A program made the position numbers and the translations under genes. Below the pieces are notes generated by a model. The model did no database searches. It was not told the DNA's origin and saw nothing but the letters and a program-made list of their open reading frames with translations. A DNA stretch of 64,000 nt from Bdellovibrio sp. (GTDB taxonomy: Bacteria; Bdellovibrionota; Bdellovibrionia; Bdellovibrionales; Bdellovibrionaceae): contig JBKCUU010000047.1 of the NCBI GenBank assembly GCA_046318155.1, positions 10,433 through 74,432 of the forward strand. Direction: 5' to 3'. Below, piece after piece: positions 20,036 to 31,037 of this stretch (position 1 is its first letter; every line of letters begins with the position of its first letter).

Positions 20036-21061
20036 TTGTCTTCAAGACCCCAGGCTCCCCTCCAGCCCAAGTTGTTTCTCGCGCCGATGGAAGGCGTGAT
20101 GGATCACTTCATGCGTGATGTGCTCACGCGCTTGGGCGGTATTGATCAAACCGTGTGTGAGTTTATTCGTATTACCGATCAAACGACGCCGGATGCTGTG
20201 TTTTTTCGGGATGCGCCCGAACTTAAAAACCAAAGCCGCACACCTGCGGGCACACCCGTTTTCATTCAACTCTTGGGCGGTGATGTTTTGCGCTTAGCTG
20301 AACATGCCCGCATCGCTGTGCGCTTGGGCGCCATCGGTGTGGACCTTAACTTTGGCTGCCCAGCGAAGACCGTGAACCGGCACGATGGCGGCGCCACTCT
20401 GCTTTTGTATCCTGAACGGATGCAAAAAATTGTGCGCGCGGTTCGTGATGCCGTTCCCGCTCACATCCCGGTGACGGCAAAAATTCGCTTGGGATTTACC
20501 GACCCGTCTGCGTGCATTGAGAGCGCCTCGGCCGTGGCCGCAGGTGGTGCCGACTGGATCACGGTTCATTGCCGTACAAAAATGGACATGTACAAGCCGC
20601 CGGCTTACTGGAATTGGATTCCCGAAATCAAGAAACACCTTCAGATTCCCGTGATTGCCAATGGGGACATTTTCAATGTTCAAGACTTAAAGGCCTGCGC
20701 CGAAGTCACCGGGTGCGATCAGTTTATGATTGGCCGAGGCGCGCTGATCGATCCGTTTATCTTTTGCAAAATTAAAGGCCTCGACGTTGATTCGTCGTGG
20801 AGAGCCGTGGTCCGCTTGGTGCAAGATTTTTTTGTTCGCACGCGGGATGAGGTCTCACCGGCTTTTGCCCAAGCAAGAACAAAACAATGGCTGCGAGAAC
20901 TGGCCAAGGGACACCATCCACAAGCCAAACTCCTGTTCGATGAAATCAAAGTTCTTCGTGACCCCGAACTTTTGTATTCTCGCTTGCTTATGGCTTTGCC
21001 ACAGACGAGCGAACTGACGAGCGAAGGGCCGTCACCACGGGTGACCACAACTCCAACGTAA
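20036..21061 (+). CDS. dusC: tRNA-dihydrouridine synthase, DusC-like
   Basis: LAPMEGVMDHFMRDVLT, NQSRTPAGTPVFIQLLG, VDLNFGCPAKTVN..GGATLL, VTAKIRLG, ITVHCRTK, IPVIANGDI and MIGRGAL align well with E. coli DusC. TTG start. Confidence 0.85.
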   Translation: MSSRPQAPLQPKLFLAPMEGVMDHFMRDVLTRLGGIDQTVCEFIRITDQTTPDAVFFRDAPELKNQSRTPAGTPVFIQLLGGDVLRLAEHARIAVRLGAIGVDLNFGCPAKTVNRHDGGATLLLYPERMQKIVRAVRDAVPAHIPVTAKIRLGFTDPSACIESASAVAAGGADWITVHCRTKMDMYKPPAYWNWIPEIKKHLQIPVIANGDIFNVQDLKACAEVTGCDQFMIGRGALIDPFIFCKIKGLDVDSSWRAVVRLVQDFFVRTRDEVSPAFAQARTKQWLRELAKGHHPQAKLLFDEIKVLRDPELLYSRLLMALPQTSELTSEGPSPRVTTTPT

Positions 21062-22044: not shown

Positions 22045-23050
22045 ACTTGGTTGGCCTCAGGCGGTCGCGTACGAGTGAGATCAAAATTGACCCCCCGATC
22101 AAGAGAGCAATGATTGCCAGTGACCAGCTAATGGGGAACTTGCCGCCGAACACATCGTTTAAGTAGACCATCTTCAGACCAACAAAAATAAGCACACAGG
22201 CCAGACCGTACTTAATGAAGGCAAAGCGGTCCATCACGCCTGCGAGCATAAAGTACATCGAGCGCAGACCCAGGATCGCAAAAATATTAGACGTGAACAC
22301 AATCAAAGGTTCTTTGGTCAATGCAAAAATCGCAGGAACTGAGTCCACCGCAAAAATGATGTCACTCAGCTCTAAAAAAACCAGAGCCAGAAAAAGAGGC
22401 GTGACGTAAGTCAGGCCATTGATTTTGATAAAGAAATTTTGACCCTCAATTTTGGGATGAACTCGCAAAACCTTCTTTAAGCCCCGTACGATAATATTGG
22501 TGTCTAAGCTCTTTTGCTCGGTCCCTGCAAAAAACATTTTGATTCCAGTCAGAATCAGCAAGCCGCCAAAAAATAAGACGATCCATTTGTACTCCATCAA
22601 CACAGAACCCATCGCAATAAAGACCGCGCGGAAAAAAAGCGCGCCAAGAATTCCCCAGAATAAAACTCGATGCTGATAGATTTTTGGAATGCCGAAATAG
22701 GCAAAGACGACCGCAAAGACAAAAATATTGTCGACGGCCAACGACTTTTCGACAACGAAACCTGTTAAGAACTCAAGCGCCGTCGTCTTCGCCTGCCCAT
22801 CAGGATCGAAATTGGGAATTTGCAGATAGCGTGGGTCGGTCGAAAAGCGAAACTGGGCGTAAAGATAGAACAGGTAATTGAACACCAAGGCCATGGCGAT
22901 CCAAAGCGAGGTCCAAACTGAAGCCTCCTTAAAACTCACTTCGTGAGCTTCTTTGTGAAAGACGCCGAGATCAAGCGCAAGGACGATAAGAACGAAAACG
23001 GTAAACCCGAGGTAGAACCACCAATAGTCAGCAAACGGAAATAGGATCAT
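22034..23050 (-). CDS. TerC family integral membrane protein
   Basis: 338 aa, multi-TM. EFLTGFVVEKSLAVDNIFVF and FLELSDIIFAVDSVPAIFALT are the duplicated TerC signature. Confidence 0.88.
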   Translation of the reverse strand: MILFPFADYWWFYLGFTVFVLIVLALDLGVFHKEAHEVSFKEASVWTSLWIAMALVFNYLFYLYAQFRFSTDPRYLQIPNFDPDGQAKTTALEFLTGFVVEKSLAVDNIFVFAVVFAYFGIPKIYQHRVLFWGILGALFFRAVFIAMGSVLMEYKWIVLFFGGLLILTGIKMFFAGTEQKSLDTNIIVRGLKKVLRVHPKIEGQNFFIKINGLTYVTPLFLALVFLELSDIIFAVDSVPAIFALTKEPLIVFTSNIFAILGLRSMYFMLAGVMDRFAFIKYGLACVLIFVGLKMVYLNDVFGGKFPISWSLAIIALLIGGSILISLVRDRLRPTKFTP

Positions 23051-23158
23051 GTTGAGAGATCTCCTTTACATGAAAGATAGCCCACCTTATGATAGCTTTC
23101 AAATCGATAATTTATTAGGCTTCTATCGTAAAATACGATGCATCAAAGCGAGGCTCGC

Positions 23159-24043
23159 ATGAATATTTGGATCAACTATCATCACCTTTTTTATTTCAAA
23201 ACGATCGCCGAAGAAGGAAGTGTCTCGAAAGCCGCCCAAAAATTGAACCTTGGCCAGCCCACGCTTTCAGCTCAGCTCAAGCAATTTGAAGAAACCATTG
23301 GCGTTCAACTTTTTGATCGACAACACAAAAAACTAATTCTGACCGAGCAAGGAAAAATCGCGCTGGATTACGCCAAGACGATTTTTCGAATGGGGTCTGA
23401 GATGTTTGAGGTTCTGCACGACAGACTTAGACCCTTGAGACCGTCTTTTCACCTCGGTGCCCTTGATAGCATCCCTAAACAAATCATTCTGCAAATTGTG
23501 AAACATGCCTTTAAAATTTCGGATTGCCAGGTGACGCTCTCGGAGGGGCGCCCAGACGAACTGCTTCGAGCGCTCGGAGCGCACCAGGTCGATCTCATTC
23601 TTTCGAACTTTATTCCAGCAGGAGTTTCAGCGAAAGGGCTTTTTCCCAAGACCATTAGTACAAAACCCGTTTCCTTTTACGGGGCTCCTAGCTTTAAGGT
23701 CTATCGAAAAGGCTTTCCACAGTCGTTGTCTGGCTTACCTTTGATTCTTCCGACTTATGATAGCAAGCTCAGGCAGGATATCGAGCACTGGGGCAAGCTC
23801 CATAAAATGGAACTCAACATCATCGTCGAGAGCCAAGACATTGCGATTAAGAAAATGATGGCGATGAGTGGACTTGGGGTCATCGCAGCTGCAAGCCACA
23901 CCGTCACCGGCCAGGTCCTGCGCGGCGAGCTCAATGAGATTGGACCTTTGGCTGGCGTCTCCGAGAACCTCTACCTCATCAGCGCCCAGAGAAAAATCGA
24001 GAACCCGATCGCAGGGAAGCTGATGCAGAGTTTTGTCGTTTAG
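23159..24043 (+). CDS. LysR-family transcriptional regulator, NhaR-like
   Basis: MNIWINYHHLFYFKTIAEEGSVSKAAQKLNLGQPTLSAQLKQFEE parallels the NhaR N-terminus (INYNHLYYF...). LysR substrate-binding domain follows. Confidence 0.88.
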   Translation: MNIWINYHHLFYFKTIAEEGSVSKAAQKLNLGQPTLSAQLKQFEETIGVQLFDRQHKKLILTEQGKIALDYAKTIFRMGSEMFEVLHDRLRPLRPSFHLGALDSIPKQIILQIVKHAFKISDCQVTLSEGRPDELLRALGAHQVDLILSNFIPAGVSAKGLFPKTISTKPVSFYGAPSFKVYRKGFPQSLSGLPLILPTYDSKLRQDIEHWGKLHKMELNIIVESQDIAIKKMMAMSGLGVIAAASHTVTGQVLRGELNEIGPLAGVSENLYLISAQRKIENPIAGKLMQSFVV

Positions 24044-24057
24044 CTTTAAAAGATGAG

Positions 24058-24120
24058 ATGCATTTGTGCATATCAAGCATGCATTTATCGTTGTTTACAA
24101 GACGGATTTTTCTGACGAAG
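24058..24120 (+). promoter_or_regulatory. repeated operator/promoter box, copy 1 (ATGCATTTGTGCATAT-N5-CATGCATTTAT...TGTTTACAAG)
   Basis: Contains the inverted repeat ATGCA-N4-TGCAT. Roughly 75% identical over about 100 nt to 25792..25890 (by eye). Its 5' part recurs at 26688..26716. Confidence 0.5.
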
Positions 24121-24250
24121 CTCAATCAAGCAAGTTCGCGACAGGAGGTGTCTTCTTTATGTTGTTTTGAACACCTATTCAAATAAACTAAACAATCCAA
24201 TTCGTGCTTGGATCTGCCGCTATTTCTTCAACCAAAACCTTTAAGGGAAA

Positions 24251-24814
24251 ATGTCTATGAAATATTTTTTGTGCCTCCTTGTTCTGATAGGCTCAACGGC
24301 GCAAGCCGAGAGCTTAAGTCTTGCCGACTCAGGAATCAAAGTGAACGTTCTTTGGCCAATTTATCCGGGCAATAGGTACCGAGTAGCGTGGCGCTACGCT
24401 CTCCACTCTGGTGACTCATACCGGACGGAGCTTAACTTAGGTCTCGGGTATACGGGAGAGGAAGATAGAAAAACAGAAGGGAAATTTTCTGAGGTTCATG
24501 CCATTTTGGGAGTTCGTCAATACTTTGGCTCGGCCTTCCATGGCGAATTAAACGTCAATCCCGGTCAATCTCAACTAAAAGATCATGTCACGAAAAAGAA
24601 AGACTATACGAGCACAGATCTCGAGGTTCAGGCCTTTCTTGGATATGAATGGAGGCTCAGCAAGAGCTTTACTCTTGATTTACAAGCGGGCGCGGTACAA
24701 GTGGTTTCTAAAACCAATTATTGGCCCGTGTATGAAGACGATGACCTCGCCAAGGAACTTGATGGAGAACCCATTGTTCCTGTGGGTCTAGTCAATGTAA
24801 CCTATTGGTTCTAG
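24251..24814 (+). CDS. small outer-membrane beta-barrel-like protein
   Basis: Signal peptide MKYFLCLLVLIGSTAQA, alternating beta-strand pattern, and a C-terminal ...VNVTYWF (aromatic terminal residue typical of OMPs). The ATG at 24257 is equally possible. Confidence 0.65.
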   Translation: MSMKYFLCLLVLIGSTAQAESLSLADSGIKVNVLWPIYPGNRYRVAWRYALHSGDSYRTELNLGLGYTGEEDRKTEGKFSEVHAILGVRQYFGSAFHGELNVNPGQSQLKDHVTKKKDYTSTDLEVQAFLGYEWRLSKSFTLDLQAGAVQVVSKTNYWPVYEDDDLAKELDGEPIVPVGLVNVTYWF

Positions 24815-24893
24815 AAGACGACAGGTCATGGATATGAGATGAGAGAAGGGGACAAGAAAATAAAGCTCTTTTAACCTTCTTTCTTCTCGATGG

Positions 24894-25748
24894 TTATGTT
24901 TTGAACACACTCTTCACCCAGCCCCAGGCGGCATCGACATGGGGAAGTCTCCTCACAGCTTTAGGTGAGGCCATGTAAAGCTCGGCAGGCAGATTTGGCC
25001 AGCTATCCACTTCGATCAAGTTTAAAGTTCTCAAATGTAAACCAAAGACTTCTGGGAGGAGGAGGACCCCCGCACCCCTTTCTGCAGCAATCAGATTTGA
25101 GGCAAGTCGATTTGAAATCAGGCGAATTTGAATCGAATCAAACTGTGGAGACATTTTTTTTAAGAGCGAAACCTCGTTTTGCATGCACAGGATGGGGAGA
25201 CTTGTCAGCTGAACCTTGCCGGAGTCTGAGGTGAAGATCTTGTGTCCGAAAAATTTGAGGGGTGAATATGTCAGCCGTAAGTTAAATGTCTCCCCCCTCG
25301 CCGGTTTATCGACCAGTATCGCGATATCACATTCAAGCCTGTTAAGATCGAAATCTTTGTTTGTGGTGCTCAAGCGAATTCGAACCATCGGGTATTTATT
25401 TAAAAAATCGGGAACATGAGGCGCCAACATTCGATCTGCAATTGCGCTAGTGCAAGAAATATGCACTTCACCCGAAGGCACTCGATTTTCTGTACTTTCG
25501 AAGTTTCGTACACGTGAAACCAGAAGTTCAATTTTTTCTGCTGTCTCCAGCAATTCTTTGACCAATTGAGTGGGTTCAAGCCCCGAGCGATGGCGAGAGA
25601 ATAGATTTTTGCCAACTTTAGCCTCGAGAGCTTGCAGTTGCCGAGAGATGGTCGACTGGTCGATTCCCATTTTTTTTGCCGCTGAGGAAATCGTTTGAGC
25701 TCTTGTTAGCTCCAGAAGAAAAACGAGATCATCAGCTGTGAAGCGCAT
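24894..25748 (-). CDS. LysR-family transcriptional regulator
   Basis: 284 aa. The HTH is LLELTRAQTISSAAKKMGIDQSTISRQLQALE. LysR C-terminal domain follows. Confidence 0.88.
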   Translation of the reverse strand: MRFTADDLVFLLELTRAQTISSAAKKMGIDQSTISRQLQALEAKVGKNLFSRHRSGLEPTQLVKELLETAEKIELLVSRVRNFESTENRVPSGEVHISCTSAIADRMLAPHVPDFLNKYPMVRIRLSTTNKDFDLNRLECDIAILVDKPARGETFNLRLTYSPLKFFGHKIFTSDSGKVQLTSLPILCMQNEVSLLKKMSPQFDSIQIRLISNRLASNLIAAERGAGVLLLPEVFGLHLRTLNLIEVDSWPNLPAELYMASPKAVRRLPHVDAAWGWVKSVFKT

Positions 25749-25792
25749 TGACGAGTCTCAAATTTTTATGTTTCTCAGGGCTTTGACAAGCA

Positions 25793-25868
25793 GGCATTTG
25801 TACATATTTACCATGCATTTATGTGTGTTTACAAGGTGGATTGTTCTGCCGAAAATCAATCAAGGTCA
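25793..25868 (+). promoter_or_regulatory. repeated operator/promoter box, copy 2
   Basis: GGCATTTGTACATATTTACCATGCATTTATGTGTGTTTACAAGGTGGATTGTTCTGCCGAAAATCAATCAAGG aligns with 24058..24130. It lies between the divergent LysR gene (24894..25748) and the second omp-like gene. Confidence 0.5.
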
Positions 25869-25887
25869 CAACGGGAGGGTTTGCTTA

Positions 25888-26502
25888 ATGTCAGGTTTTT
25901 TAAAACATATTCTATTTTTCATTCTTTTTGTCAGTTTTGGTTCCAAGAGCATGGCAGGCCAGCTCACCTTGGGAGCGGATTTGATTCAGCCATTTGTGCT
26001 TGGTGGCTGGAACCTCAATGGGTACTACTACTTTGATAATGGCTTGGTTTTTGGCTGGTCGCATGGGGATAATCTCGAAATGTCTTTTGAGGATTCTTTT
26101 GCACCTGATCCTATTAAGGATGCTAAGGCTTCAGTATTCACAGACTGGTCCACCGGACCTGAGCTCGGATACAGGCTGGGGAAGAACTGGGATGTGAGAA
26201 TGGACTTCAAAGCACATTACAATCGAGTTAAATTTGATTCGAACCCAGCACCGATCAGGTACACCCTGTACACCGTTGGGCCAAGTGTATTTTATAATTG
26301 GTTTCCTTTTTCAGCCGATACTAACGGTTTTCTTGTTCAGTTCTCTGCCCGTTATTGGGTTGAAGTTGATGATGACTTCAATGACGATAATTTCACTTAC
26401 ATCGACAAAAACGGAAACACCAAAAAGCATGATCCGAGGGATTTCTGGGATGGTGGGATCAGTGGTTTTGGTTTAAACGTCGCATTTGGCTGGGCATTTT
26501 AA
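25888..26502 (+). CDS. small outer-membrane beta-barrel-like protein
   Basis: Start at the ATG at 25888 with GGGAGGG RBS. Signal peptide MSGFLKHILFFILFVSFGSKSMAG. Aromatic-rich strands and a C-terminal ...NVAFGWAF. Confidence 0.65.
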   Translation: MSGFLKHILFFILFVSFGSKSMAGQLTLGADLIQPFVLGGWNLNGYYYFDNGLVFGWSHGDNLEMSFEDSFAPDPIKDAKASVFTDWSTGPELGYRLGKNWDVRMDFKAHYNRVKFDSNPAPIRYTLYTVGPSVFYNWFPFSADTNGFLVQFSARYWVEVDDDFNDDNFTYIDKNGNTKKHDPRDFWDGGISGFGLNVAFGWAF

Positions 26503-26550
26503 TCACATGAACAAAAGCAATCAAATCTGCTTTTCCGGCACTTCGGCGCC

Positions 26551-26690
26551 CTCCGCGGCGAGCTCAAGGAGATTGGACCTTTGGCGCGGGCGTCTCCGAA
26601 AACCTCTACCTCATCAGCGCCCCGAGAAGAATTGAGAACCAGATCGCAGTAAAGCTCATGCAGAGTTTTGTTGTATAGCTTTAAACGATG
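26551..26690 (+). pseudogene. degenerate duplicate of the 3' end of the NhaR-like LysR gene
   Basis: Aligns base-for-base with 23918..24057 (CGCGGCGAGCTCAA.GAGATTGGACCTTTGGC...CTCTACCTCATCAGCGCCC...ATGCAGAGTTTTGT). A 2-nt indel and substitutions break the frame, and there is no upstream gene body. Confidence 0.8.
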
Positions 26691-26716
26691 ATGTGCATAT
26701 TTCTTATGCATTTTAA
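26688..26716 (+). promoter_or_regulatory. repeated operator box, copy 3, upstream of the eRF1/Pelota-like operon
   Basis: GATGTGCATATTTCTTATGCATTTTAA matches the 5' part of copies 1 and 2. A TATAAAAT -10-like element follows at about 26723. Confidence 0.45.
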
Positions 26717-26779
26717 CATTCCTATAAAATCACCGATCCTTTAAGTAAGCGCAGGATGCGCAAACTCAAAGGAGATCAC

Positions 26780-27916
26780 ATGCAAAGTATCAAATCCTCT
26801 TTAAAGCCTCTTATCGAATCCTCGCATGGCGTTCACGTCACAATCTACATGGTGAACGAGGGTGGACAAGAAAATATCATGCGCCAACTTCGACAATCGC
26901 TCGAAGAAGCCCACGACTTCCTTCAGCCCGTCATGTCTTTGCAGGAGCGGCAGATGCTTCTTGCTCCGCTCGATCATTTATTAGTTGAGGGACACGTTTT
27001 TCACCACATGCAGGGAAATATCGGCCTCTTCCGCACGAAAGACTCCTTTCGCATTTTGAGCATCCCCGTTGACATGCCTCGCAGTGTCCATGTCGCGACG
27101 ACTTTTCATGTCAAGCCTTTGCTGCAATGGATTCAGGTCGACCAAGAATACTTTTTGCTTGGACTTGATGGTCAACAGGCCCATCTTTACATCGGCAACT
27201 ATCACTCCATCCAGTTGATTGAGTCCATCGCTTGCCCGCTCCAGAGCGGTCTTGCGGATAGCGCGAGCTTGGCAAAAAAAGGCGACGACGAAGAGATCTT
27301 GAGTGGTGAAATCCCTGTTTGGATCAGGAGCTGGATTTGGCAGCGAGCAAGCAAGACGAATCCTCTTTTTTTTATTGCTGGGCCCCCGGCCTATTGCCGA
27401 CAAATTTTTAAAGGCATCAAGTACCATCGGACCGTCCGCGAGCCTCTTTTGACAAGCTTTTCGAAACCGGCTCTCGAAAGCTGCACCTCTGCGATCCAAG
27501 ACTATCTAGAAAGTCATGCTCACCGTGAACTCGCTTCAGCGCTCGTCGAATATGAAGTCGCGTCCGAAGAAAATCGGACCCGGCGAAATATCTTTCAGAT
27601 CGCAAAGGCGGCAGCGCTCGGAAAAGTACGCAAGCTCATTATCGCCAAGGACACCGTTATTCACGGCAAGTTGGATCTCAGAACTGGGGGCCTTGCGCTT
27701 CATCCGTTTGATTTGGACCATGAGGATGACGACATCTTGGATGACTTGGCGCAGGCGGTTCTTGCCCGCGGCGGCGAGGTGCTCGTTGTTGACAAGGCCC
27801 AGTTACCGAAGGGACGCGCGGCTCTGGCAATTCTGGATGAGTCTCTTCATCTGGAGCAATCGCCTTCGCCTTACCTGGGGTCGGCTCTCAATTCTCGCGG
27901 AACACCCCAACTCTAA
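26780..27916 (+). CDS. eRF1/Pelota(Dom34)-superfamily protein, bacterial baeRF-type, paralogue A
   Basis: 378 aa from the ATG at 26780 (AAAGGAGA RBS). Blocks GVHVTIYM, IGLFRTKDSFRIL, HVKPLLQWIQ, FFIAGPPAYCRQIF, GKVRKLIIAKD, HEDDDILDDLAQAVLARGGEVLVV...GRAALAIL follow the order of eRF1/Pelota N, central and C domains. The assignment is motif-level only. Confidence 0.6.
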   Translation: MQSIKSSLKPLIESSHGVHVTIYMVNEGGQENIMRQLRQSLEEAHDFLQPVMSLQERQMLLAPLDHLLVEGHVFHHMQGNIGLFRTKDSFRILSIPVDMPRSVHVATTFHVKPLLQWIQVDQEYFLLGLDGQQAHLYIGNYHSIQLIESIACPLQSGLADSASLAKKGDDEEILSGEIPVWIRSWIWQRASKTNPLFFIAGPPAYCRQIFKGIKYHRTVREPLLTSFSKPALESCTSAIQDYLESHAHRELASALVEYEVASEENRTRRNIFQIAKAAALGKVRKLIIAKDTVIHGKLDLRTGGLALHPFDLDHEDDDILDDLAQAVLARGGEVLVVDKAQLPKGRAALAILDESLHLEQSPSPYLGSALNSRGTPQL

Positions 27917-27940
27917 CATTTGAATAAACTGGAGAATTTT

Positions 27941-29074
27941 ATGCTCAAATCCACGACAAAAACTCTTTCGAATTTACTCACCTCTCAAGGCGGTGTTCAC
28001 CTCACGATCTACTTGAACAATAACGGTGACATCATTGACCTTAAGGATCAGCTCCGAAAACGACTCCTCGAAGCAAAAGACTGGCTTGAGCCCGTGATGA
28101 CGCCGGTTCAGCAAGAAAAATTTCTTGAGCCAATCAATGCACTCGTTTTGGACACACGACTTTTAAAAGACCTTAAGGGGGCTATCGGGCTGTTTAAAAA
28201 CACCGACTCGTTTCGGTTGCTGGGGATTCCAGGAAGCGTCGATCCGAGCTACCACGTGGCAAGCTCTTATCACGTCAAACCGCTCCTTCGTTGGATCCAG
28301 ACAGATCAAGACTTCATGTTTCTGGGATTTGAAAAAACGCGTGTGCACCTGTACTCTGGAACGCAAAATTCATTTAGACTGATCGATTCTGTCTTGTTTC
28401 CAGATCTCATTTCAAAATCATTGGACCACGGCGAAGACAATCTCAAAGGAGCACGCCAACAAAAAGCGCAAGTGAAGCAAACCTTGCTCTGGCTCAATCA
28501 ATGGATTGCAGAACTCACGGCCCAGTCGATGCCTGCGCTTTTTGTGGCGGGTGAGGCGTCGCTGACAAAAGAATTCTTCAAGTTCTCCACTTACAAGAAT
28601 TTGGTCCCGACGGCCTTGTCTGGTTTTTTTAATAAAAACGAAGCTCTCAGCTTTGCTCGGCGCATTCGAAATCTGCAAAAATCCGAATCTTCAAAAAAAT
28701 TTGAAGGCGCACTCCAGGATTTTGAAATTGCCGACAAACAGAACCAGGCTTGTTCGGATCTCTTCGAGATGACCGCGGCTGCCGTTAGAGGCCAAGTCCA
28801 AAAACTGGTCATTGCGGATGACATGAGCCTCTTCGGAAAAGTGGATCATGATTCAGGTGTTCTGACTCTGCATGCGCATGACCTCAACCACGAGGACGAT
28901 TGCATTTTAGATGATCTGGCGCAGCTTGTTCTTAACCAAGGCGGGCAAGTGGTGATCGCAAAACAAAATCAGATTCCTGACGGGCGCCCGGCACTCGCGA
29001 TCTTGAATGACGAAAGACCCCAGACAACGGCGCACGCAGGTCTGCACGATGTCCTGCAAGAGAGGTTTGGATGA
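27941..29074 (+). CDS. eRF1/Pelota(Dom34)-superfamily protein, bacterial baeRF-type, paralogue B
   Basis: 377 aa from the ATG at 27941 (GGAGA RBS). Collinear with paralogue A: GVHLTIYL, IGLFKNTDSFRLL, HVKPLLRWIQ, LFVAGEASLTKEFF, GQVQKLVIADD, HEDDCILDDLAQLVLNQGGQVVIA...GRPALAIL. Confidence 0.6.
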   Translation: MLKSTTKTLSNLLTSQGGVHLTIYLNNNGDIIDLKDQLRKRLLEAKDWLEPVMTPVQQEKFLEPINALVLDTRLLKDLKGAIGLFKNTDSFRLLGIPGSVDPSYHVASSYHVKPLLRWIQTDQDFMFLGFEKTRVHLYSGTQNSFRLIDSVLFPDLISKSLDHGEDNLKGARQQKAQVKQTLLWLNQWIAELTAQSMPALFVAGEASLTKEFFKFSTYKNLVPTALSGFFNKNEALSFARRIRNLQKSESSKKFEGALQDFEIADKQNQACSDLFEMTAAAVRGQVQKLVIADDMSLFGKVDHDSGVLTLHAHDLNHEDDCILDDLAQLVLNQGGQVVIAKQNQIPDGRPALAILNDERPQTTAHAGLHDVLQERFG

Positions 29075-29478
29075 ACAAGCTGATCTTGCTCGAAATCTGG
29101 AGAAAAGCGCAAACGCAACCGAGAGTCATGCGAAAGCTCAAGATTTTTTTGATCGTCGGCGTCCTGGGCTGCGTGTTGACAGCAAGTCTTGTCATCTGGG
29201 CGGGCATTTCGGCCCTTTCGTTTGTTGTCGGCAAATCAAGAGACCTCATGCAGTCGCCTCAGGTGTCGGCTCATGTCGAAAAAATGCAAGACCTTCCCGT
29301 TCACGCCGTGACATTTCAGCCAGTTGAATGCTGGCAAAGAGCGCTCAGCCTTTTAGCTGTCGAACCTTGGGTTTTGCAGTCGGCCCTGACTAACTTGCAA
29401 AACTTAAAAGCCTCATGCCTTGGCTCGCCAGCTTCCTCAGATTCGATGAACAACTCACCCACCAACAAGGAGAATTGA
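29071..29478 (+). CDS. small single-pass membrane protein
   Basis: 135 aa. ATGA overlap with the upstream stop. TM segment IFLIVGVLGCVLTASLVIWAGISALSFVV. No family recognised. Confidence 0.55.
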   Translation: MNKLILLEIWRKAQTQPRVMRKLKIFLIVGVLGCVLTASLVIWAGISALSFVVGKSRDLMQSPQVSAHVEKMQDLPVHAVTFQPVECWQRALSLLAVEPWVLQSALTNLQNLKASCLGSPASSDSMNNSPTNKEN

Positions 29479-29479
29479 G

Positions 29480-29863
29480 ATGATTCAAATAAAATTTAAA
29501 AACCTTGAGAAATCACAATTGGCCAGTGAGGCAGCTTTAGAAAGAATCGAAGGGCTCATCCTGAAATTCCCTGACCTCGCAAAAAGCCATGTCCAGCTGA
29601 CCCTCGAAATGCAGAACTCACCCTTTCAAGCCGGTCCTGATCTGTTCAAAATCAAGCTGTGCACCACACGGGGACGATACACAGGGATCGTGGTCGAAAA
29701 AGAGGATGCGAATCTTTACGTCGCCCTGGCTGAACTGACTGACGACATGCTTGAGGTCCTCAATCGATTCGGTGATCGCGAACGCGTAAAAAGACTCAAG
29801 CAAGCGCGAACCTTCGTTCGAGAGCTCAAGAAAAAGAGCGTGGACCACGACAAGGCGGGGTGA
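29480..29863 (+). CDS. HPF/RaiA (ribosome hibernation factor, S30AE)-like protein
   Basis: 127 aa with GGAGA RBS. The beta-alpha-beta-beta-beta-alpha pattern IQIKFKNLE / QLASEAALERIEGLILKF / HVQLTLEM / FKIKLCT / IVVEKEDANLYVALAELTDDMLEVLNRF parallels HPF/YfiA proteins. Motif-level only. Confidence 0.55.
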   Translation: MIQIKFKNLEKSQLASEAALERIEGLILKFPDLAKSHVQLTLEMQNSPFQAGPDLFKIKLCTTRGRYTGIVVEKEDANLYVALAELTDDMLEVLNRFGDRERVKRLKQARTFVRELKKKSVDHDKAG

Positions 29864-29902
29864 CTGGCTCTCGTTTCAAGATCATGAGCTGGAGTGGCGA
29901 GC

Positions 29903-30988
29903 CTATTCTCTGAGCGCTGTTCGCCGGGTCATCGAGACCCGCGAATTGAAAAAATCGGCCATCGCCTGCTGAATACTGTCGCCGGATTTCGCTATCATCA
30001 CGGCTGAAAAAAGGGCGTGACCAAAATCAAGCCATACACTTGTCATTCGCACATGAAAACGAAATTTTCGCAGCGCCAAGCTTTCGCTGTGGGTTTCGAG
30101 CAAGATCATTAAAAGTTGGCGCAAACAACGCCCGTACTCGGCGCCCTCCTCTTCGGGTGTTTGCGGCGCCCTTTCACCCTCGCGGCCATAGGGAGCCGCA
30201 AGCCCCAGGCGCTCACCCACCTGCCACATCATCCAAGGCCGGGCGGCGAGCGCGCGGCCACTCATGGCGAGATCACACCCGGTTTCTTCAAGAATCTGAA
30301 AGACGTCATCGACGGTTTGCACATCGCCATTACCGATGACCGGAATGTTGACGTTCTCGCGAAGGCGCTTGATCTGATCCCAATCGGCGCTGCCTCGTCT
30401 TTTTTGTTCGGCCGTGCGAGGGTGCAAAGTGACCCAAGAGGCCCCGGCGTCTTGAAGTCTGTGAACGAAGTTAAGTAAAAAATGAAGGTCCCCTTGAGGT
30501 CCGGCACGCAACTTGACGCTGACGGGGACCGAACTATTCCTCACCGTCATGCGCACCACTTCGGCCGCATAGGCCGGATCACCCATCAGCGCGACGCCAT
30601 AATTGTGCTTGAGCGCTTTTTGTACGGGGCAGCCCATATTGATATCGATGCCCTCGGCTCCCCACTCGATCAGGCGCGCGACGGTTTCTTGAATGGGGCC
30701 TTCTTCATTGCCTAAAATTTGCGGCACCAAGCCCGATTCAAAAGGGGCACGCAGGGTTTCGGGCGTTTGTCCGACTTTTTCTTTGGGGATTTTCCAAGAA
30801 CTCAGCATTTCGGTGGGCCAAATGGTTTTGGCTCCCGCAGGCAGATAATTTCGTGTGACCAAGCGAAGCGCCATGTGCGACATCCCAACCATGGGAGCCA
30901 TACAGAGGGGAAAATTCACCTCCCCGTTCAACAATGAGCGACGTGTCGCCCCAAAGCCGGGGGCACGAATTGTCCTTAAGTCTTGCAC
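29903..30988 (-). CDS. tRNA-dihydrouridine synthase (second Dus paralogue)
   Basis: MAPMVGMSHMALR, IDINMGCPVQKA, VSVKLRAG, VTLHPRTAEQ, IPVIGNGDV and AMSGRAL are Dus-family motifs. Confidence 0.88.
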   Translation of the reverse strand: MQDLRTIRAPGFGATRRSLLNGEVNFPLCMAPMVGMSHMALRLVTRNYLPAGAKTIWPTEMLSSWKIPKEKVGQTPETLRAPFESGLVPQILGNEEGPIQETVARLIEWGAEGIDINMGCPVQKALKHNYGVALMGDPAYAAEVVRMTVRNSSVPVSVKLRAGPQGDLHFLLNFVHRLQDAGASWVTLHPRTAEQKRRGSADWDQIKRLRENVNIPVIGNGDVQTVDDVFQILEETGCDLAMSGRALAARPWMMWQVGERLGLAAPYGREGERAPQTPEEEGAEYGRCLRQLLMILLETHSESLALRKFRFHVRMTSVWLDFGHALFSAVMIAKSGDSIQQAMADFFNSRVSMTRRTALRE

Positions 30989-31037
30989 CCCTGTCGTTTA
31001 ACCAATAATTTGTCAAAAAGAAAGGACTCTCAAAGAT

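Follow-up and report, generated by a model that had tools for sequence, protein, structure and literature searches.

A Balon-like and RaiA-like gene cluster of Bdellovibrio sp. as a probable ribosome hibernation system

A cluster of four genes in Bdellovibrio sp. most probably represents the form that Balon–RaiA ribosome hibernation takes in Bdellovibrionota, a reading to which we assign a probability of about 0.78. The cluster lies in a 64,000-nucleotide stretch of DNA (NCBI GenBank assembly GCA_046318155.1, contig JBKCUU010000047.1, positions 10,433 to 74,432 of the forward strand), hereafter the window, whose own numbering is used throughout. It corresponds to a metagenome-assembled genome of Bdellovibrio sp., P0001 being 100% identical. 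Its genes, designated g1 to g4, are the following.

g1, 26780-27916, plus strand: 378 aa; Balon-like (baeRF-1 clade) protein of the aeRF1 family, divergent paralogue
g2, 27941-29074, plus strand: 377 aa; Balon-like (baeRF_family3) protein of the aeRF1 family, counterpart of the single gene in related loci
g3, 29071-29478, plus strand: 135 aa; orphan single-pass membrane protein
g4, 29480-29863, plus strand: 127 aa; short protein of the HPF/RaiA family with a long charged C-terminal helix

The core idea, that an aeRF1 mimic encoded beside an HPF/RaiA gene inactivates ribosomes, is established, having been predicted in 2019 and visualised by cryogenic electron microscopy (cryo-EM) in 2024. Burroughs and Aravind (International Journal of Molecular Sciences, 2019; PMC6514570) described the baeRF-1 families, noted a 'persistent operonic association' between these and HPF, and proposed that they block the A site without catalysis, in concert with HPF. 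Helena-Bueno et al. (Nature, 2024; PMC10901736) resolved hibernating ribosomes of Psychrobacter urativorans to which Balon is bound together with RaiA and with EF-Tu, in a set of structures (PDB 8RD8, 8RDV, 8RDW and 8V9J-L) accompanied by the mycobacterial Balon homologues Msmeg1130 and Rv2629. The same study identified RaiA as the most frequent neighbour of Balon genes, found two to four Balon copies, at different loci, in 38% of species, and described the HP motif of Balon, an extended N-domain loop contacting A1492 and A1913. According to a 2025 preprint, HPF isoforms of non-canonical type are often encoded beside Balon genes. A preliminary description of the Bdellovibrio cluster, made from the sequence without database searches, knew of no experimental description of the gene combination; the baeRF-1/HPF neighbourhood published in 2019 (PMC6514570) and the joint occupancy of ribosomes by Balon and RaiA reported in 2024 (PMC10901736) make that view outdated.

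Encoded proteins and their conservation

The four genes are co-directional and tightly packed, with 24 nt between g1 and g2, a 4-nt ATGA overlap between g2 and g3, and 1 nt between g3 and g4, exactly as the preliminary description had recorded. Each is preceded by a purine-rich ribosome-binding site (RBS): AAAGGAGA for g1, TGGAGAA for g2, AGAGAGG for g3 and AAGGAGAA for g4. Public annotation begins g1 at an alternative ATG at 26756, which lengthens the product to 386 aa and sits within the leader hairpin discussed below; the family alignment and the N-terminus of an orthologue, P0115 (MQSIKSSLKP), support 26780 as the likely start. The operon represents more than a chance arrangement, since homologues of each of the four genes are conserved and dozens of genomes repeat their order.

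Among the Pfam models baeRF_family1-12, the relevant one is PF18845 (baeRF_family3), which g2 matches with 39.7 bits, above the gathering score of 31.5, and which is matched by 26 of the 28 aligned family members. The NCBIfam model NF052287, named 'AOC03_06830 family ribosome hibernation factor' and corresponding to the Balon family, aligns with g2 over its full length (81.1 bits, E 1e-22) and also recovers g1 (72.2 bits, E 5e-20). Balon chain 8rd8_B is the sole PDB sequence match of the two proteins (E 0.0078 for g2 and 0.11 for g1), and a profile built from 28 family sequences retrieves it at E 3.7e-8 over residues 38-350. When this family was searched against 1.84 billion protein representatives, 282 clusters were obtained at E <= 1e-30, corresponding to the subfamily, and 5615 at E <= 1e-3, corresponding to the wider clade; the best 150 matches all belonged to the close subfamily, with no canonical Balon among those. 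Chain B of PDB entries 8rd8, 8rdv and 8rdw, which is Balon, carries the label 'Methyl-accepting chemotaxis protein', a misannotation that hides the relationship from name-based searches.

The AlphaFold2 model of g2 (predicted local distance difference test, pLDDT, 84.4; predicted template modelling score, pTM, 0.78) comprises three domains. Foldseek ranks ribosome-bound Balon (8rd8_B, 8rdw_B and 8rdv_B) at the top, with E-values of the order of 1e-21 and template modelling (TM) scores of 0.62-0.67 (4e-21 and 0.62-0.65 for the first, 8rd8_B), followed by Msmeg1130 and then by aRF1/eRF1, while Rv2629 (rank 20) and Pelota/Dom34 appear lower. Overall, Balon, Msmeg1130 and Rv2629 on ribosomes reach TM scores of about 0.6-0.67, against 0.25-0.5 for full-length aRF1, eRF1 and Pelota chains. 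The three-domain aeRF1-like fold would extend to g1, judging by its 37% identity to the modelled g2. In the C domain of the g2 model, a two-strand insert (strands 298-301 and 308-310), located between a core strand and helix 322-332, matches the two-strand insert or beta-hairpin described for the baeRF-1 clade and Balon. The eRF1/Pelota-like fold and the baeRF-type assignment put forward in the preliminary description are thus borne out, by the structural matches of g2 together with the full-length paralogy of g1 for the former and by the Pfam score of g2 for the latter.

The hallmarks of catalytic release factors are missing from the family. The NIKS stop-codon motif occurs in 0 of 66 family members, and the catalytic GGQ is found only sporadically at non-homologous positions (residue 28 of g1 and residue 334 of g2, the latter a C-domain position at which GGE is the family sequence). 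The middle-domain loop of the family ranges from 4 to 24 aa, with Gln in at most 9% of sequences in any column. An active release factor or peptidyl hydrolase was considered as a candidate and rejected, there being no conserved GGQ or Gln.

As previously described, g1 and g2 are full-length, collinear paralogues (37% identity over 356 residues, E 7e-88), which share the blocks GVH.TIY, IGLF..DSFR.L, HVKPLL.WIQ, F.AG, KL.IA.D, HEDD.ILDDLAQ and GR.ALAIL; a further block given as GG(E/Q)V(L/V)V is slightly off, g2 reading GGQVVI rather than GG.V.V. The g1 protein retains 29 of the 29 invariant columns of the family alignment. Divergence between the two is greatest in the variable middle-domain loop, the element that in Balon approaches the peptidyl-transferase centre, and any specialisation of the paralogues would be expected there. 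The identity of only 37% argues for an old, maintained duplication. The orthologue P0115 occurs in another organism at a different locus (L069), where it stands alone and is followed by an unrelated 235-aa open reading frame (ORF); its existence likewise indicates that g1 is an old, maintained paralogue rather than a fresh copy.

The product of g4 is modelled with a pLDDT of 86.8 as a beta-alpha-beta-beta-beta-alpha fold extended by a long C-terminal helix (DSSP: E2-7, H13-29, E37-44, E56-64, E71-77 and a helix over residues 79-125), the latter bearing 12 K/R and 9 D/E residues. All of the top 31 PDB matches returned by Foldseek are HPF, YfiA, pY or RaiA proteins, with TMt values up to 0.77, so that the HPF/RaiA-like pattern noticed earlier in the sequence agrees with the predicted structure. 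These matches include 8rd8_D, which is RaiA on the same Psychrobacter ribosome as Balon and is also the best PDB sequence match of the g4 family profile (E 8e-4). Among the 119 other homologues listed (60-73% identity), all but one carry PF02482 in precomputed annotation, and some orthologues have been named RaiA or HPF by JGI or NCBI. The C-terminal dimerisation domain of long HPF is not present in g4, whose 127 aa end in a single predicted helix after residue 79, and hibernation of the 70S rather than the 100S type is therefore expected.

The g3 protein contains one hydrophobic segment at about residues 22-54, seen as a single Kyte-Doolittle peak, preceded by a basic N-terminal tail (7 K/R versus 1 D/E) and followed by a C-terminal region of about 80 aa; W43, C87, W100 and C116 are invariant in its family. 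By the positive-inside rule, the N-terminus (about 23 residues) would be cytoplasmic and the Cys-containing bulk of the protein outside the membrane. Searches for g3 in Pfam, NCBIfam, PDB profiles and PADLOC yielded only noise, and a word-indexed homology search recovered just 6 relatives, in keeping with its initial characterisation as a single-pass membrane protein of no recognised family. Translation of g3 is coupled to that of g2, and the cassette carries the gene as an accessory that may be missing. Our best guess is that its product is anchored in the membrane and acts as a modulator or sensor, its Cys-containing domain facing the periplasm and its basic tail the cytoplasm.

Related loci were surveyed by ORFs and hidden Markov models in one genome per species, which gave 68 loci, or 69 with the window. 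Nearly all of the 68 belong to Bdellovibrionota (Bdellovibrionales, Pseudobdellovibrionaceae, Bacteriovoracaceae, Oligoflexales and Silvanigrellaceae), and two come from distant Acholeplasmataceae. A g4-like gene follows directly 3' of the Balon-like gene in 51/69 loci, and a g3-like gene lies between the two in 31/69 (about 45%), mostly with the same 4-nt overlap; the expectation that these genes co-occur outside this genome is accordingly confirmed. Neither of the two outcomes that the preliminary description had named as refuting its reading was obtained. Some of the other loci without a g4-like gene end at contig edges. The tandem Balon-like pair is found in the window only, and a place for it in the conserved module is not supported: it is specific to this lineage (1/69 loci).

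Several individual loci depart from the common arrangement. An Oligoflexus sp. metagenome-assembled genome carries a second, very divergent baeRF-like gene (L030:9769-10962, minus strand; E 2e-46 to the family profile), situated 2.6 kb downstream of its Balon-like/RaiA-like pair on the opposite strand and grouping with the Acholeplasmataceae outgroup, which indicates that clustering of different baeRF paralogues also occurs elsewhere. A member of the Bdellovibrionaceae has a second g4-like ORF of 125 aa (L001:9356-9733; jackhmmer E 1e-29) about 1.4 kb downstream of the first. In another locus (L012:7547-7864), the ORF after the membrane-protein gene opens with MIQIK like RaiA-like proteins and then diverges completely, which probably reflects a frameshift in, or decay of, a RaiA-like gene; at another locus of the genome concerned (LWDK01), L025, the Balon-like/RaiA-like pair is intact.

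Putative regulatory region and flanking DNA

The DNA upstream of g1 contains a regulator gene, an apparent insertion and a leader with two candidate regulatory elements, arranged as follows.

23138..24043, plus strand: LysR-type transcriptional regulator (Pfam HTH_1 and LysR_substrate)
24251-24814: outer-membrane-like ORF A with signal peptide, ending in TYWF
24894-25748, minus strand: second, unrelated LysR gene, within the insertion
about 25888-26502: outer-membrane-like ORF B with signal peptide, ending in GWAF
26550..26698, plus strand: duplicated remnant of the last ~127 nt of lysR and its stop region, just upstream of the g1 promoter region
26704..26720, plus strand: promoter/operator-like motif TTATGCATTTTAACATT (family consensus TTATCTATTTTAACAAT)
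26737..26773, plus strand: stem-loop of the 5' untranslated region, with core GCGCA-GGA-TGCGC (26749-26761) and an outer stem pairing UCCUUU (26737-26742) with AAAGGA of the RBS (26768-26773)

The upstream LysR gene is itself part of the conserved neighbourhood. In 38 of the 64 loci with enough upstream DNA, the Balon-like gene is preceded by a highly conserved, co-directional orthologue at a distance of 40-630 nt (mostly 70-115 nt), and a divergent terC lies beyond it in 34 of these 64. The window regulator shares 73% identity with the LysR protein encoded directly upstream of the Balon-like gene at locus L071.

Between lysR and the Balon-like gene, the consensus TTATCTATTTTAACAAT is near-invariant and was detected in 55/71 loci, about 60-100 nt upstream of the Balon-like start (for instance L001:5912-6003, L016:5912-6003 and L028:5913-6003). 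It holds a TTA-N7-TAA dyad resembling a LysR box, which overlaps the -35-like sequence TTAACA, and a -10 element, CCGTAAAGT, follows about 11 nt past the motif in most loci. The 64-kb window contains one match to the motif, with 0.1 expected by chance. A sigma-28 (FliA-type) reading of the CCGTAAAGT box was set aside for its poor -35 and spacing fit. Leaders of the g1 type, namely those of the window and of the P0115 locus (L069:1340-1385), lack the CCGTAAAGT box, and both have CGATCCTTT.

Downstream of this motif, the leader is predicted to form a hairpin. Folding with ViennaRNA gave -15.7 kcal/mol and z -4.2 for the window leader, and a mean z of -1.9 against shuffles for 51 leaders. In a MAFFT alignment of 32 leaders, in which nine pairs were specified by hand, 73% of the cells were paired, versus 60% in shuffles (0/500 of which reached 73%) and 39-43% in slid controls, and compensatory changes were present in 9/9 of the specified pairs. 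The hairpin sequence is variable, with compensatory changes visible in arms such as GTGAAAGC/GCTTTCAC, AGTCAGAG/CTCTGACT and AATCAAAAG/CTTTTGATT. RNAalifold returned no consensus structure from the leader alignment, the support being obtained only with the hand-specified pairs. In g1-type leaders, the CCUUU of CGATCCTTT can pair with the RBS sequence AAGGAG around an inner GC hairpin (z -4.2 in the window and -0.8 in L069), and it may be speculated that such leaders act as a translational switch or thermometer-like element. Rfam gave no match at E <= 1 in positions 23000-31000 and none at the gathering score across the 64-kb window, where tRNA and tmRNA genes are likewise lacking.

Inside the operon, a simple scan of the plus strand detected no promoter-like or terminator-like sites, totals being at shuffle level. 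The motif TTATCTATTTTAACAAT is not found in the 24 nt before g2, so g2 to g4 most likely depend on the g1 promoter. Given also the gaps of 24 nt, -4 nt and 1 nt, the four genes would most likely form one transcription unit expressed from a single regulated promoter upstream of g1, and the neighbouring LysR protein is a plausible candidate for its control.

In contrast to relatives, in which lysR abuts the Balon-like gene directly, the window has 2.6 kb of additional DNA between lysR and g1, with the inserted segment at about 24064-26549. Direct repeats bracket this segment, matching 23917-23952 with 26550-26585 (94%) and 23951-24063 with 26586-26698 (88%), 2.63 kb apart. Because of the direct adjacency in relatives, the segment looks like an insertion accompanied by duplication of the target region. 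The palindrome-like sequence TGTGCATAT-N5-6-ATGCATTT occurs three times (24066-24095, 25800-25830 and 26693-26715), with copies upstream of ORF A, ORF B and g1, as seen in a repeat search. This placement suggests a possible operator common to the transcription units of ORF A, ORF B and g1.

Further out, the region is flanked by two paralogous genes for tRNA-dihydrouridine synthase (Dus) in opposite orientation, at 20036-21061 (plus strand) and 29903-30988 (minus strand). Recent duplication was considered for three gene pairs and rejected for each: the Dus proteins share 31% identity, the two LysR proteins 30% in the helix-turn-helix region only, and the two outer-membrane-like ORFs no significant similarity. 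At only 31% identity, the Dus genes are ordinary paralogues rather than products of a recent duplication.

Proposed function and alternative explanations

Homology with the systems of Psychrobacter and Mycobacterium suggests that the RaiA-like protein g4 binds the decoding and mRNA-channel region of the 30S subunit. The Balon-like g1 and g2 proteins would fill the A site of the ribosome, mimicking aeRF1 without catalysis; EF-Tu would probably deliver them, and RaiA could be bound at the same time. Acting together, g1/g2 and g4 could keep 70S ribosomes inactive and protected while the cells are not growing. Ribosome binding, dependence on EF-Tu and any division of labour between g1 and g2 are suggested here by analogy with the characterised relatives. 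The preliminary description had envisaged a combined hibernation and wake-up module; the hibernation half of that proposal fits Balon and RaiA, but a Dom34-style splitting activity for wake-up is not supported, the characterised relative being a non-catalytic A-site blocker that causes hibernation and not a splitting factor.

Several observations weigh against this interpretation. The g1 protein scores 18.6 bits against PF18845, under the gathering score of 31.5, and g4 falls just under that of PF02482 (Ribosomal_S30AE), with 20.5 bits and E 8e-4 against 23.7. Both g1 and g2 score far under the equivalog cut-off of NF052287 (72-81 bits against 330), identity to characterised Balon is only about 16%, and the two proteins are full-length homologues of Psychrobacter Balon but not its equivalogs. 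No HP dipeptide occurs in the N domain of g1 or g2, and with residues 1-36 of Balon outside every alignment, no equivalent of the loop was located. At least 8 loci with intact flanks have no RaiA-like gene, which makes the Balon/RaiA pairing frequent rather than obligatory. The CCGTAAAGT box is absent upstream of g1, and the promoter assignment is weaker in the window than in relatives. Finally, the literature searched contained no experiments on this subfamily or on this phylum, no hibernation study in Bdellovibrionota, and no papers that deal with such a system in Bdellovibrio or specifically with baeRF_family3.

A ribosome rescue or counter-toxin module, providing Dom34-like or release-factor-like relief of effector-stalled or damaged ribosomes, would suit conflict in a predatory bacterium. 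The fold is held in common with Pelota/Dom34 and eRF1, and Burroughs and Aravind proposed conflict-driven origins for the baeRF-1 clade and noted its lateral spread (PMC6514570). We nevertheless consider such a module unlikely: neither GGQ nor a conserved loop Gln is present, the nearest structures are hibernation factors and not Pelota, and the conserved partner, RaiA, is itself a hibernation factor. The genomic surroundings point the same way, the conserved neighbours being a LysR regulator and terC rather than adjoining toxin, nuclease, RtcB or mobile-element genes, and PADLOC defence models match none of the four proteins. With no PADLOC matches and no toxin or mobile genes nearby, an anti-phage or defence system was rejected. 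More remote still, and in our view highly improbable, is a role of the Balon-like proteins in regulated translation, such as stop-codon-dependent pausing or a termination-like reaction, instead of the storage of idle ribosomes; the full three-domain aeRF1 architecture is compatible with it, but the NIKS motif is missing and the characterised relatives bind independently of mRNA.

A different doubt concerns g1, since the functional module might consist of g2, g4 and possibly g3, with g1 a redundant or decaying duplicate produced by local rearrangement and without a distinct role. The tandem arrangement in 1/69 loci, the rearranged DNA just upstream (the 2.6-kb insertion and the duplicated 3' end of LysR) and the score of g1 under the Pfam gathering threshold all lend this some weight. 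Yet g1 is a full-length open frame with its own RBS and 29/29 invariant family positions; its orthologue P0115 is intact in another organism, behind a homologous leader with CGATCCTTT and a hairpin; and 37% identity to g2 bespeaks an old, maintained duplication. A redundant g1 thus seems about as doubtful as a rescue function, and a Balon–RaiA hibernation system remains the reading that we favour.

In a more elaborate form, the Balon–RaiA pair would have been developed in many Bdellovibrionota into a three- or four-part system that combines g3 as a coupling or tethering component, specialised paralogues and a LysR/leader switch. In that event, g3 would either make hibernation responsive to the condition of the envelope or to redox state, or hold hibernating ribosomes at the membrane; each Balon paralogue would act on its own class of ribosomes, such as vacant ones or those carrying peptidyl-tRNA; and LysR together with the RBS-sequestering leader would switch the system between the non-growing hunting phase and growth. 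We regard this combination as tentative and rather improbable as a whole, its standing being only slightly better than that of the rescue and redundancy proposals.

Comparison with known systems and significance

This locus mainly extends a known system into Bdellovibrionota, a phylum that alternates between non-growing and growing phases, and its core will be unsurprising to the specialist. As leads, the membrane protein and the regulatory elements are modest but can be tested. If functional, g3 would be a new accessory component of hibernation. Furthermore, the window offers a natural example of diverged Balon paralogues paired within one predicted transcription unit, which is useful for asking whether such paralogues specialise. 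We know of no account of how Balon operons are regulated, and the upstream motif, the LysR gene and the covarying hairpin, all strongly conserved, give a concrete handle on this question.

The closest described counterparts are Balon and RaiA of Psychrobacter and Mycobacterium. As in Balon, the three-domain fold is aeRF1-like, Balon being the best structural match of the g2 model; NIKS and the catalytic GGQ loop are lacking; the C domain has a two-strand insert; a RaiA-type gene adjoins; and multiple copies are present, as in 38% of species. Unlike canonical Balon, the Bdellovibrio proteins show only about 16% identity to it and score under the NCBIfam equivalog cut-off, the two copies stand in tandem in one operon rather than at different loci, and the Balon-like and RaiA-like partners are separated by an extra, conserved gene for a membrane protein. 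With the baeRF-1 clade, the locus shares the PF18845 match, the operonic link to HPF, the variable loop devoid of Gln and the two-strand insert in the Pelota domain (PMC6514570). That description is computational and general, and its accessible part does not mention the membrane protein, the LysR/promoter context or tandem paralogues (PMC6514570).

The g4 protein resembles the short RaiA/YfiA/pY proteins in its fold, in its length (127 aa versus 126 aa for P. urativorans RaiA) and in having a C-terminal extension without a dimerisation domain. It differs from typical PF02482 proteins in scoring under the gathering threshold and in the prediction of its C-terminal extension as one long charged helix, and it is one of the non-canonical HPF isoforms of the kind described next to Balon genes. 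For g3, a conceptual parallel exists with YqjD, ElaB and YgaM, C-tail-anchored membrane hibernation factors that are also small, membrane-anchored and tied to ribosome inactivation. The predicted topology of g3 is nevertheless opposite to theirs and no sequence similarity was detected, so the comparison is one of analogy only. To our knowledge, the features that are new with respect to all these systems are the tandem Balon-like paralogues in one operon, the membrane-protein gene inserted before the RaiA-like gene, the association with a LysR gene and a promoter-like motif upstream, and the hairpin in the leader with its covariation.

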